DNA from: Escherichia coli
GTDB lineage: Bacteria > Pseudomonadota > Gammaproteobacteria > Enterobacterales > Enterobacteriaceae
Strand: one strand, 5' to 3'
DNA length: 50,632 nt
Assembly (NCBI RefSeq): GCF_003334315.1
Contig: NZ_QOWR01000031.1
Under the pieces are notes generated by a model. That model ran no database searches. It saw only the letters and a program-made list of their open reading frames with translations, and had not been told where the DNA came from. The position numbers and the translations under genes are program-made. Below, piece by piece: positions 205-21,128 of this stretch (position 1 is its first letter; each line of letters begins with the position of its first letter).

Positions 205-2238
<2,034 letters not shown>

Positions 2239-2249
2239 CGCGTGAACGT

Positions 2250-2792
2250 ATGAAGAAAAAAACGATATTTCAGTGCGTTATCTTGTTCTTTAGCATTCTT
2301 AACATCCATGTCGGGATGGCTGGGCCTGAACAAGTTAGTATGCATATTTATGGGAATGTGGTCGATCAGGGCTGTGATGTCGCCACCAAAAGTGCATTAC
2401 AAAATATTCATATTGGTGATTTTAATATCAGTGATTTTCAGGCCGCGAATACCGTAAGCACTGCTGCTGATTTGAATATCGATATCACCGGTTGTGCCGC
2501 TGGTATTACTGGCGCGGACGTCCTTTTTAGCGGCGAGGCTGACACCCTTGCGCCGACACTGCTCAAACTAACTGACACAGGCGGAAGCGGTGGTATGGCA
2601 ACGGGGATTGTCGTGCAAATTCTTGATGCGCAAAGTCAGCAAGAAATCCCGCTCAATCAGGTCCAGCCTCTTACGCCCTTAAAAGCCGGGGATAACACAC
2701 TCAAATATCAACTTCGTTATAAGTCCACAAAGGCGGGAGCAACGGGCGGTAATGCGACGGCGGTTCTCTATTTTGATCTGGTTTACCAGTGA
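2250..2792 (+). CDS. ycbU: Fimbrial subunit-like protein YcbU
   Basis: 180-aa ORF with N-terminal signal peptide (MKKKTIFQCVILFFSILNIHVGMA); fimbrial minor subunit by position. Confidence 0.8.
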   Translation: MKKKTIFQCVILFFSILNIHVGMAGPEQVSMHIYGNVVDQGCDVATKSALQNIHIGDFNISDFQAANTVSTAADLNIDITGCAAGITGADVLFSGEADTLAPTLLKLTDTGGSGGMATGIVVQILDAQSQQEIPLNQVQPLTPLKAGDNTLKYQLRYKSTKAGATGGNATAVLYFDLVYQ

Positions 2793-19414: not shown

Positions 19415-19770
19415 TTTTTGCGCCTCGTTATCATCCAAAATACGCCATGAATATCTCCAACGAGATAACACGGTTAAATCCTTCACCGGGGGATCTGCTC
19501 AATATTAACTCTACCGATATCTTCGGCTTATGCCGAGCACCCCTGGCGATGTAAAGTCTACAACGTAGTTGAAAACTTACAAGTGTGAACTCCGTCAGGC
19601 ATATGAAAAAAAAGTCTTGTATAAGGTATGTTTAATCTTTTTTGTCAGCGACAATTTACAGAAGAGAATCGCGGAAACCGCTTCAGACAAGCCTCCGCAA
19701 GGAAAATTAGTCACGACTGAAAGCATTGGCTGGGCGACAAAAAAAGTTCCAGGATTAATCCTAAATTTAC

Positions 19771-20280
19771 TTAATGATACAAATTAGAGTGAATTTTTAG
19801 CTCGGAAAGTTGTCTCGTGGCGTGAGAGGATGCGCTTACCGGACGCATAATAAACCCCATAGCGTTACCTTCATTTGCCGCATCAACAAGTTCAGCATGC
19901 TCTTCTTCAGTCAAATCATCTGCCAACCAACCGATCACCACACTGTAATTGCCCGTGCGTAAAGCGCGAACCATTGACTCCACAGTGTGGCAAGGGGAGA
20001 GCTGGCTAATCTGCATTACTTTCGTTAAGGGTAGCCCAGATGCCTGAACCCATTCCCGACTCAGTTTTTGTTGCGGTGTTAACCAGAGTTGCCAGCGCGA
20101 TTGCTGACCGAGTTGCTGTAACAATGGCAACAGTAGAAGTTGCGTCATCATGGGCTGATCTTCGCGATAGACAACTTCACTGATAAGCCCGGCTGTAGTG
20201 TTTTCCGTAGAGACACGCGCAATTTTACTTGCTGCGGATGAGAACGACGAAGAACGATGTGCATAGCCTGAAGTGTACAT
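19771..20280 (-). CDS. sulA: SOS cell-division inhibitor SulA
   Basis: Translation [54 protein letters not shown]...; LexA box immediately upstream. Confidence 0.95.
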
Positions 20281-20303
20281 AATCAATCCAGCCCCTGTGA
20301 GTT

Positions 20304-20323
20304 ACTGTATGGATGTACAGTAC
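20304..20323 (-). promoter_or_regulatory. LexA operator (SOS box) of sulA
   Basis: TACTGTATGGATGTACAGTA: perfect CTGT-N8-ACAG palindrome 24 nt upstream of the sulA start. Confidence 0.85.
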
Positions 20324-20498
20324 ATCCAGTGACAACAAAGATCAACCCTATTTTCGGAAAGAGCCTCGCAAATTTTGTCGTTGGTGACGGGAAAACATAA
20401 ATTAATCTTGCCCCTTAAGAATAAGTTGCCTATTTTCGTAGTTAACGGATCCGTTAATGTGAATCATTCTTTTATGTTATGATTTTAAAAGGAATTTT

Positions 20499-21128
20499 AT
20501 GAAAAGCCTCTCCTATAAGCGGATCTATAAATCACAAGAATACCTGGCAACGTTGGGCACAATTGAATACCGATCATTGTTTGGCAGTTACAGCCTGACC
20601 GTTGACGACACGGTGTTTGCGATGGTTTCTGATGGTGAGTTGTATCTTCGGGCTTGTGAGCAAAGTGCACAGTACTGTGTAAAACATCCGCCTGTCTGGC
20701 TGACATATAAAAAGTGTGGCCGATCCGTTACCCTCAATTACTATCGGGTTGATGAAAGTCTATGGCGAAATCAACTGAAGCTGGTGCGTCTGTCGAAATA
20801 TTCTCTCGATGCAGCGCTGAAAGAGAAAAGCACGCGCAATACCCGGGAAAGACTGAAAGATTTGCCCAATATGTCTTTTCATCTGGAAGCGATTCTCGGG
20901 GAGGTGGGGATTAAGGATGTACGGGCGTTACGTATACTTGGGGCAAAAATGTGTTGGTTGCGACTGCGGCAGCAAAACAGTCTGGTGACAGAAAAGATTC
21001 TGTTTATGCTTGAAGGTGCCATTATCGGCATTCATGAAGCTGCGCTCCCGGTGGCACGCCGCCAGGAGCTTGCAGAATGGGCTGACTCTCTTACGCCGAA
21101 ACAGGAGTTTCCTGCGGAACTTGAGTAA
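20499..21128 (+). CDS. sxy: Competence regulator Sxy (TfoX)
   Basis: 209-aa ORF divergent from sulA; sequence matches Sxy/TfoX as recalled. Confidence 0.88.
   Translation: MKSLSYKRIYKSQEYLATLGTIEYRSLFGSYSLTVDDTVFAMVSDGELYLRACEQSAQYCVKHPPVWLTYKKCGRSVTLNYYRVDESLWRNQLKLVRLSKYSLDAALKEKSTRNTRERLKDLPNMSFHLEAILGEVGIKDVRALRILGAKMCWLRLRQQNSLVTEKILFMLEGAIIGIHEAALPVARRQELAEWADSLTPKQEFPAELE

Follow-up and report, generated by a model that had tools for sequence, protein, structure and literature searches.

The sulA and sxy (tfoX) genes of Escherichia coli lie back to back, one encoding the SOS cell-division inhibitor and the other the co-activator of the CRP-S regulon, and this raises the question of how the short stretch between them serves both genes, and whether it governs them jointly or separately. 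We addressed this question in a 50,632-bp stretch of E. coli chromosome (hereafter the window), whose numbering is used throughout. Many complete E. coli genomes match the 1.5 kb around the gap between the two genes at 100% identity; the RefSeq annotation of this identical DNA names sulA, sxy and yccS, and the same gene order, ompA–sulA–sxy–yccS, is found in K-12 MG1655. The two genes that flank the gap are as follows.

19771 to 20280, minus strand: sulA coding sequence, an open reading frame of 169 amino acids for the SOS cell-division inhibitor, named by the RefSeq annotation of identical DNA.
20499 to 21128, plus strand: sxy (tfoX) coding sequence, an open reading frame of 209 amino acids for the CRP-S regulon co-activator, named by the RefSeq annotation.

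The sulA product matches the equivalog family NCBIfam NF007892 ("cell division inhibitor SulA") over its full length with an E value of 2.4e-82, and homologues of Sxy carry the Pfam domains TfoX_N and TfoX_C. The gene identities and the divergent layout given in the original prediction are borne out by the open reading frames, the NCBIfam match and the RefSeq annotation. The sulA ATG lies at 20280 (minus strand) and the sxy ATG at 20499 (plus strand), so that the gap runs from 20281 to 20498 and measures exactly 218 bp, the length that had been predicted. RefSeq annotates no features inside 20281–20498, and a search against Rfam at E ≤ 1 returned two sub-threshold chance matches only (snoZ168 and a plastid UTR). 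The gap was found in every one of 5426 complete E. coli genomes, three of which have no single match spanning at least 80% of it. At the far side of sxy, the convergent 3′ ends of sxy (plus strand) and yccS (minus strand) share 38 bp (21091–21128).

For comparison across species, a profile of 13 Sxy proteins was used to retrieve 80 Enterobacteriaceae genome loci, and the gaps of 77 species, those in which the gene starts are clean, were aligned. sulA is divergently upstream of sxy in 80 of the 80 loci, and in the 77 species the gap stays between 215 and 220 bp although identity falls to about 55% for Sxy and to about 64–70% for SulA. On the sulA side of the gap, the following elements were located.

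20281 to 20310, minus strand: sulA 5′ untranslated region of 30 nt, from the transcription start at 20310 (Kim 2012); a nearly invariant block in the 77 species.
20303 to 20322, both strands: LexA (SOS) box TACTGTATGGATGTACAGTA, covering −12 to +8 of the sulA promoter, PsulA.
20317 to 20322, minus strand: PsulA −10 element TACTGT, inside the LexA box at −12 to −7 of the start at 20310; invariant in the alignment.
20340 to 20345, minus strand: PsulA −35 element TTGATC, which holds a GATC, with a 17-nt spacer to the −10 element.

The start of sulA transcription could be placed at 20310 without any coordinate arithmetic, because the 51-nt upstream string printed for sulA in the Kim 2012 table (PMC3415461; start 1020172 on the minus strand, 5′ untranslated region of 30 nt) matches the reverse complement of 20310–20360 exactly. 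With the start mapped there, the LexA box occupies −12 to +8, the classic geometry for occlusion. A LexA box in the gap had been predicted at 20304–20323; the box is present, but the canonical 20-mer TACTGTATGGATGTACAGTA lies at 20303–20322, and the predicted coordinates are therefore off by one base to the right. The CTG-N10-CAG core, at 20305–20320, falls within both intervals. The box differs from TACTG(TA)5CAGTA at three positions and is the sole site with three or fewer mismatches in the 50,632 bp, while no such site arose in any of 100 shuffled sequences. We also built a position weight matrix from 25 E. coli SOS boxes, leaving out that of sulA (training scores 12.9–26.7 bits, median 20.4). 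These training boxes come from the literature, and 16 of the 25 agree with the table of PMC3009722; recN and lexA each contributed two boxes, one of which is the single box printed there for the gene. The matrix scan, which the original prediction had proposed as its check, gave a significant match of 22.3 bits at the sulA box, against 10.6 for the runner-up in the window and 20.3 for the best of 100 Markov resamples. The site thus shows what is expected of a gammaproteobacterial LexA box: the core palindrome, a score within the matrix range, and overlap with the core promoter and the start. Read on the sulA strand, it is TACTGTACATCCATACAGTA, the sequence printed for the sulA box in the table of PMC3009722, a UV tiling-array study in which sulA is induced by UV.

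Could this LexA-like palindrome nonetheless be a chance match, with sulA controlled in some other way? We found nothing in favor of this, although the bare core CTGT-N8-ACAG, taken by itself, arises by chance in 43 of 100 shuffles. Both the matrix score, which exceeds the resample maximum and the next site in the window, and the empty count of shuffled sites within three mismatches of the consensus speak against it, as do the presence of the box at a fixed distance in 77 of 77 species, its position over the mapped −10 element and +1, and its listing as an SOS box. This reading is effectively refuted, and we consider it next to impossible. In the alignment the box has the consensus TACTGTATGnATATACAGTA and stands 21–23 nt from the sulA ATG in all 77 orthologous gaps. 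The block AAAGATCAAC at the sulA −35 element is likewise invariant in the 77 species, and the spacer between the −35 and −10 elements is free in sequence and fixed in length.

On the other side of the gap, the original prediction had placed the promoter and leader of sxy, and both were found there.

20408 to 20413, plus strand: −35 element TTGCCC of the sxy promoter, Psxy; CTTGCC is conserved, at a constant distance from the −10 block in nearly all 77 gaps.
20431 to 20436, plus strand: Psxy −10 element TATTTT, at −13 to −8 of the transcription start; the block CCTATtTTC is nearly invariant.
20444 to 20498, plus strand: sxy 5′ leader of 55 nt, from the start at 20444 (an A), mapped by Kim 2012 and by Cappable-seq.

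As for sulA, the 51-nt sxy upstream string of Kim 2012 (PMC3415461; start 1020306 on the plus strand, 5′ untranslated region of 55 nt) is identical to 20394–20444, which sets the start at 20444. Cappable-seq (PMC4782308), an independent dataset, reports the same plus-strand start with a score of 58.6, together with a minor start at 20490, and the RpoD genomic SELEX paper PMC3946193 assigns the same promoter, TTGCCC-17-TATTTT. A consensus scan of 20150–20650 for promoters and terminators at a threshold of 9 of 12 positions returned no matches; both real promoters fit only 7–8 of the 12 positions, so the empty scan is uninformative. The starts at 20310 (minus strand) and 20444 (plus strand) are 134 bp apart, and the −35 and −10 hexamers of the two promoters do not overlap. 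Opposite-strand starts with a short non-transcribed region between them make this a back-to-back divergent promoter pair.

Between the two promoters, the original prediction had suspected a CRP-S-type site for sxy, and such a site could be located.

20352 to 20373, both strands: CRP-S 22-mer TTTCGGAAAGAGCCTCGCAAAT, centered at 20362.5; assigned from published half-sites and conservation.

Sondberg et al. 2019 (PMC6728893) describe the CRP-S site of Psxy as a conserved TGCGA half that is promoter-proximal and a non-conserved TTCCG half that is distal. In their Psxy reporters, swaps or duplications of the half-sites alter the dependence on Sxy (the DD variant has no activity and the PP variant does not need Sxy), and Psxy-lacZ and Psxy-yfp fusions are inactive in crp or cyaA mutants. 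These published half-sites map uniquely in the gap, as the sole exact match there: CGGAA at 20355–20359 (TTCCG, distal) and TCGCA at 20366–20370 (TGCGA, proximal), giving CGGAA-AGAGCC-TCGCA at 20355–20370. On the minus strand, TGCGA-GGCTCT-TTCCG (20370–20355) agrees with the E. coli pattern quoted in PMC6728893 at 9 of 10 positions. The pattern alone has two exact matches in the window, and at one or fewer mismatches its count equals chance; a call from pattern statistics alone was therefore dropped, and the identification rests on the published mutagenesis together with conservation. The site has the anatomy of a 22-bp CRP-type site, with a TGCGA half (C at position 6) and, 6 bp away, a second half of the kind that in E. 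coli is only weakly conserved (TTCCA-like), and is a poor match to canonical CRP halves, CGGAA agreeing with TGTGA at 2 of 5 positions and TCGCA with TCACA at 4 of 5 (direct reading). Low affinity of CRP-S sites in the absence of Sxy is reported in PMC1635313, and RegulonDB v12 records a CRP-Sxy complex and its asymmetric DNA-binding site. In one of the three genomes without a single match to 80% of the gap, E. coli NH-21 (NZ_CP148034.1), which we inspected, an IS1 element (1748..2445, locus L092) has entered the gap some 77 bp from its edge, near window position 20357, where it interrupts the distal CRP-S half and parts the sulA promoter from Psxy. An exact 10-bp direct repeat, CCTATTTTCG, occurs at 20347–20356 and 20429–20438, 82 bp apart, one copy flanking the distal CRP-S half-site and the other containing the Psxy −10 element; only in E. 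coli are the two copies exactly identical, and an ATTTTC core is conserved at both places. A second repeat of 16 nt, with 81% identity, pairs 20281–20296 with 20400–20415.

The center of the CRP-S site lies at −81.5 of Psxy, a distance that rests on genome-wide start data taken without Sxy induction, and at −52.5 of PsulA. The class I position for CRP is −82.5, within a base of the distance to Psxy. Is 20444, then, the start that matters for induced transcription? The literature conflicts on this point (−55 versus −115): Sinha & Redfield 2012 (PMC3330819, Discussion, data not shown) give the sxy start as a G 115 bp before the ATG, which is window position 20384 and conflicts with 20444, and say that the resulting long leader folds in the manner of the H. 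influenzae and V. cholerae leaders. On that reading, the main or inducible transcript would begin at 20384 and carry a translation-limiting stem-loop of the kind present in H. influenzae sxy and V. cholerae tfoX. Besides the published statement, a 25-nt imperfect inverted repeat (20394–20418 with 20454–20478) would fit such a leader. However, Kim 2012 lists no start nearby, the plus-strand list of Cappable-seq goes from 1019721 straight to 1020306, and a start at 20384 would center the CRP-S site at −21.5, inside the core promoter and incompatible with activation; moreover, 20377–20397 is the least conserved stretch of the gap. The long leader fares no better as RNA, since the 145-nt RNA folds no better than shuffled sequences (z = −0.01; the other leader fold gave z = −1.45) and RNAalifold predicted no consensus pairs in 46 species, with no consensus structure for either the 55-nt or the 115-nt sxy leader. 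Comparative support for the proposed stem-loop is thus lacking, and a translational stem of the H. influenzae or V. cholerae type in the sxy/tfoX 5′ untranslated region was not found here. We regard a main start at 20384 as very improbable and retain 20444. A study by Jaskolska & Gerdes in 2015, which reportedly defined the Psxy CRP-S site, may have mapped the sxy start as well.

Taken across the 77 gaps, the conserved blocks are the sulA 5′ untranslated region, the LexA box, AAAGATCAAC, the CRP-S halves, the sxy −35 CTTGCC and the −10 CCTATtTTC. Both CRP-S half-sites are conserved and the 6 bp between them are free; the promoter spacers and the 35 bp from the CRP-S site to the sxy −35 element are free in sequence but constant in length. 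As a pattern of aligned sequence, this amounts to a textbook phylogenetic footprint. More distant relatives, drawn from a representative search, mostly retain the divergent sulA/sxy pair. In Tatumella, Yersinia ruckeri and Edwardsiella the LexA box, the sulA −35 element and the CRP-S site are all present with unchanged spacing, and Providencia retains the LexA box and the CRP-S site with a −35 element that differs. Rosenbergiella keeps sulA and its LexA box and lacks the TCGCA half-site, and in Plesiomonas ompA is followed after 671 bp by tfoX, and neither a called sulA nor a LexA box is present; in both genera one side of the pair has been naturally lost. In Frischella, tfoX lies elsewhere, not beside sulA. 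The retention of the pair in Enterobacteriaceae and in most of the more distant relatives indicates that the arrangement is old and order-wide in Enterobacterales.

The original prediction had spoken of SOS and competence regulators sharing one control region. What stands is the physical adjacency of back-to-back promoters with starts 134 bp apart; of cross-regulation between PsulA and Psxy there is no evidence in this analysis or in the literature that could be consulted. The two promoters might nevertheless form a coupled switch, in which the CRP-S site or CRP-Sxy modulates PsulA, or LexA or sulA transcription affects Psxy, by alpha-CTD competition, DNA bending or transcription-driven supercoiling across the 134 bp. 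Several observations would fit such coupling. The distance from the sulA −35 element (GATCAA) to TCGCA is 26 bp in 77 of 77 species and 25–26 bp in Tatumella, Yersinia and Edwardsiella; the divergent pairing persists across five families as Sxy falls to about 55% identity; the CRP-S 22-mer starts 6 bp beyond the sulA −35 element, at the place of an UP element or alpha-CTD; and sbmC, another SOS gene, depends on Sxy and CRP-S (PMC1635313). Against this, only 6 bp separate the sulA −35 element from the CRP-S site, so the fixed 26-bp spacing may merely mean that there is no room for insertions or deletions, and the neighboring ompA–sulA spacer is also fairly stable in length (350–378 bp). The LexA box is centered 131.5 bp upstream of the sxy start. 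CRP activates from positions such as −41.5, −61.5 and −72.5, and the CRP-S site at −52.5 of PsulA is half a turn off these. The UV tiling-array paper (PMC3009722) lists sulA as induced and makes no mention of sxy, and our literature search found sxy, sulA, LexA and CRP together only in a generic network study. Coupling therefore seems very improbable to us, and from the geometry we infer that the controls of sulA and sxy are independent.

We conclude that the gap very probably consists of two back-to-back sigma-70 promoters, with starts 134 bp apart, that are separately controlled and whose compact layout has been kept across Enterobacterales. In this model, PsulA (TTGATC, 17 nt, TACTGT, +1 at 20310) is shut off by a LexA dimer bound at −12 to +8, which, lying over the −10 element and the start point, excludes RNA polymerase. 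DNA damage leads to RecA-stimulated self-cleavage of LexA and so frees PsulA, and the SulA produced blocks FtsZ. The mechanism of LexA repression and cleavage is established, as is LexA footprinting at the sulA operator; the present analysis supplies the sites and their positions. Psxy (TTGCCC, 17 nt, TATTTT, +1 at 20444) would be a weak promoter that cAMP-CRP together with Sxy boosts through the low-affinity CRP-S site at −81.5, a class-I-type position, resulting in positive autoregulation. For Psxy, published reporter experiments (PMC6728893) show that activation depends on Sxy, CRP and cAMP; the location and distance of the site come from this analysis.

Other features have been recorded in and around the gap. 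Genomic SELEX papers report that the TetR-type regulator RcdA (YbjK; box TTGTnnACA) targets the sulA/sxy spacer, with an RcdA footprint in or near sulA and sulA mRNA unaffected, and flag H-NS in this AT-rich spacer, which has 28–31% GC at 20400–20549. Cappable-seq plus-strand starts at 19565, 19663, 19824, 19838 and 19859, the one at 19565 being strong (score 39), are antisense to the ompA–sulA spacer and the sulA coding region. Conway 2014 reports a stationary-phase antisense transcript over all of sulA, which would run towards the sulA/sxy promoters.

The short sxy leader itself holds two further conserved elements.

20442 to 20457, both strands: perfect 16-bp palindrome TTAACGGATCCGTTAA with a central GATC, lying across the sxy +1 at 20444.
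20478 to 20501, plus strand: TGAT (20480–20483), Shine-Dalgarno sequence AGGA (20490–20493) and the start codon, a candidate weak hairpin.

Conservation of the palindrome is symmetric in most of 73 Enterobacteriaceae sequences, and the palindrome is lost in Kosakonia, Kluyvera and Pseudescherichia. The window holds no other close copy of TTAACGGATCCGTTAA, and a full-text literature search for the sequence returned no paper. Near the same place, Edwardsiella has a different small inverted repeat, ACGG-TTTC-CCGT, as does Tatumella, GGCA-GCTA-TGCC; although the cases are far too few, these differing repeats lean towards a hairpin over a fixed dimer operator. Covariation for a 5′ RNA hairpin at the +1 palindrome was nil; for the 5′-terminal hairpin AACG/CGUU the paired share of 77% did not exceed that of shuffled sequences, and the hairpin is not supported. 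Rather tentatively, and as an unlikely reading, TTAACGGATCCGTTAA, with its central Dam site, might be a repressor operator or a methylation-sensitive element that silences sxy in the laboratory, possibly with TGAT alongside.

The TGAT at 20480–20483 is invariant in the 73 sequences. It forms part of a segment, YAUGAU, that pairs with AUYAUG, which includes the start codon, and leaves the Shine-Dalgarno sequence in the loop; this register gives pairing in 91% of cells, against 20–63% when the partner segment is slid. The changes within this hairpin are all one-sided (U·G/C-G and G-C/G·U), so that it is to be read as a hint, not proof. This weak hairpin of 5–6 bp is possible, and would be the sole helix candidate remaining in the leader. 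TATGAT, 7 nt before the minor Cappable-seq start at 20490, could also be the −10 element of that start. Three candidate leader helices showed no covariation above controls. The hairpin AAUCAU/AUGAUU (20462–20467 with 20479–20484) was set aside for its absence of covariation, and so was a long-range helix between GGAUCCGUU in the leader and AGCGGAUCU in codons 7–9, which is 79% paired, the same as in shuffled sequences, and is broken in Kosakonia and Kluyvera. Pairing of the codon-8 segment CGGAUC with GGAUCC of the leader showed no covariation. Of the 73 Arg codons present across species at position 8 of Sxy (20520–20522), 63 are the rare CGG or AGG, and the codon for Arg25 is mostly CGC or CGT. 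We also rejected an upstream open reading frame (ATG at 20479 to TGA at 20502, MILKGIL*) that overlaps the sxy ATG, as no more than 8 of the 77 species have it both in frame and stop-free.

How does this locus compare with known systems? The sulA (sfiA) promoter of E. coli K-12 with its LexA operator was reportedly described by Cole in 1983 and by Mizusawa et al. in 1983, and the promoter in the window is identical to the K-12 one in box sequence, position over the −10 element and +1, 30-nt 5′ untranslated region and transcription start, with no difference of substance. Compared with E. coli Psxy as published (Jaskolska & Gerdes 2015; PMC6728893), we find the same asymmetric site, with TGCGA proximal, TTCCG distal and a 6-bp spacer; the window coordinates, the −81.5 distance to the genome-wide start and the conservation of both half-sites across Enterobacteriaceae go beyond that work. 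The same regulator gene is under CRP control in Vibrio (tfoX, PMC4595672) and H. influenzae (sxy, PMC2248739). However, the Vibrio tfoX promoters carry canonical CRP-N sites rather than CRP-S sites (PMC4595672), and H. influenzae and V. cholerae have a translation-limiting stem in the 5′ untranslated region, whereas no conserved or unusually stable structure was found in the E. coli sxy leader. Finally, sbmC (PMC1635313) also combines LexA-type and CRP-S-type control at one locus, but there both inputs act on one gene, whereas in the sulA/sxy gap each site serves its own divergent promoter.

The original prediction called this a known arrangement, and it is: the sulA LexA operator is textbook material and the Psxy CRP-S site has already been mutated and characterized. 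As stated, then, that observation adds nothing new, and what has been gained is the exact coordinates of every element. All of the sites and spacings are fixed across Enterobacteriaceae and largely so across four further Enterobacterales families, and the gap can therefore serve motif scanners as a clean reference. The two conserved elements of the leader, the palindrome and TGAT, might bear on why sxy stays silent in E. coli.
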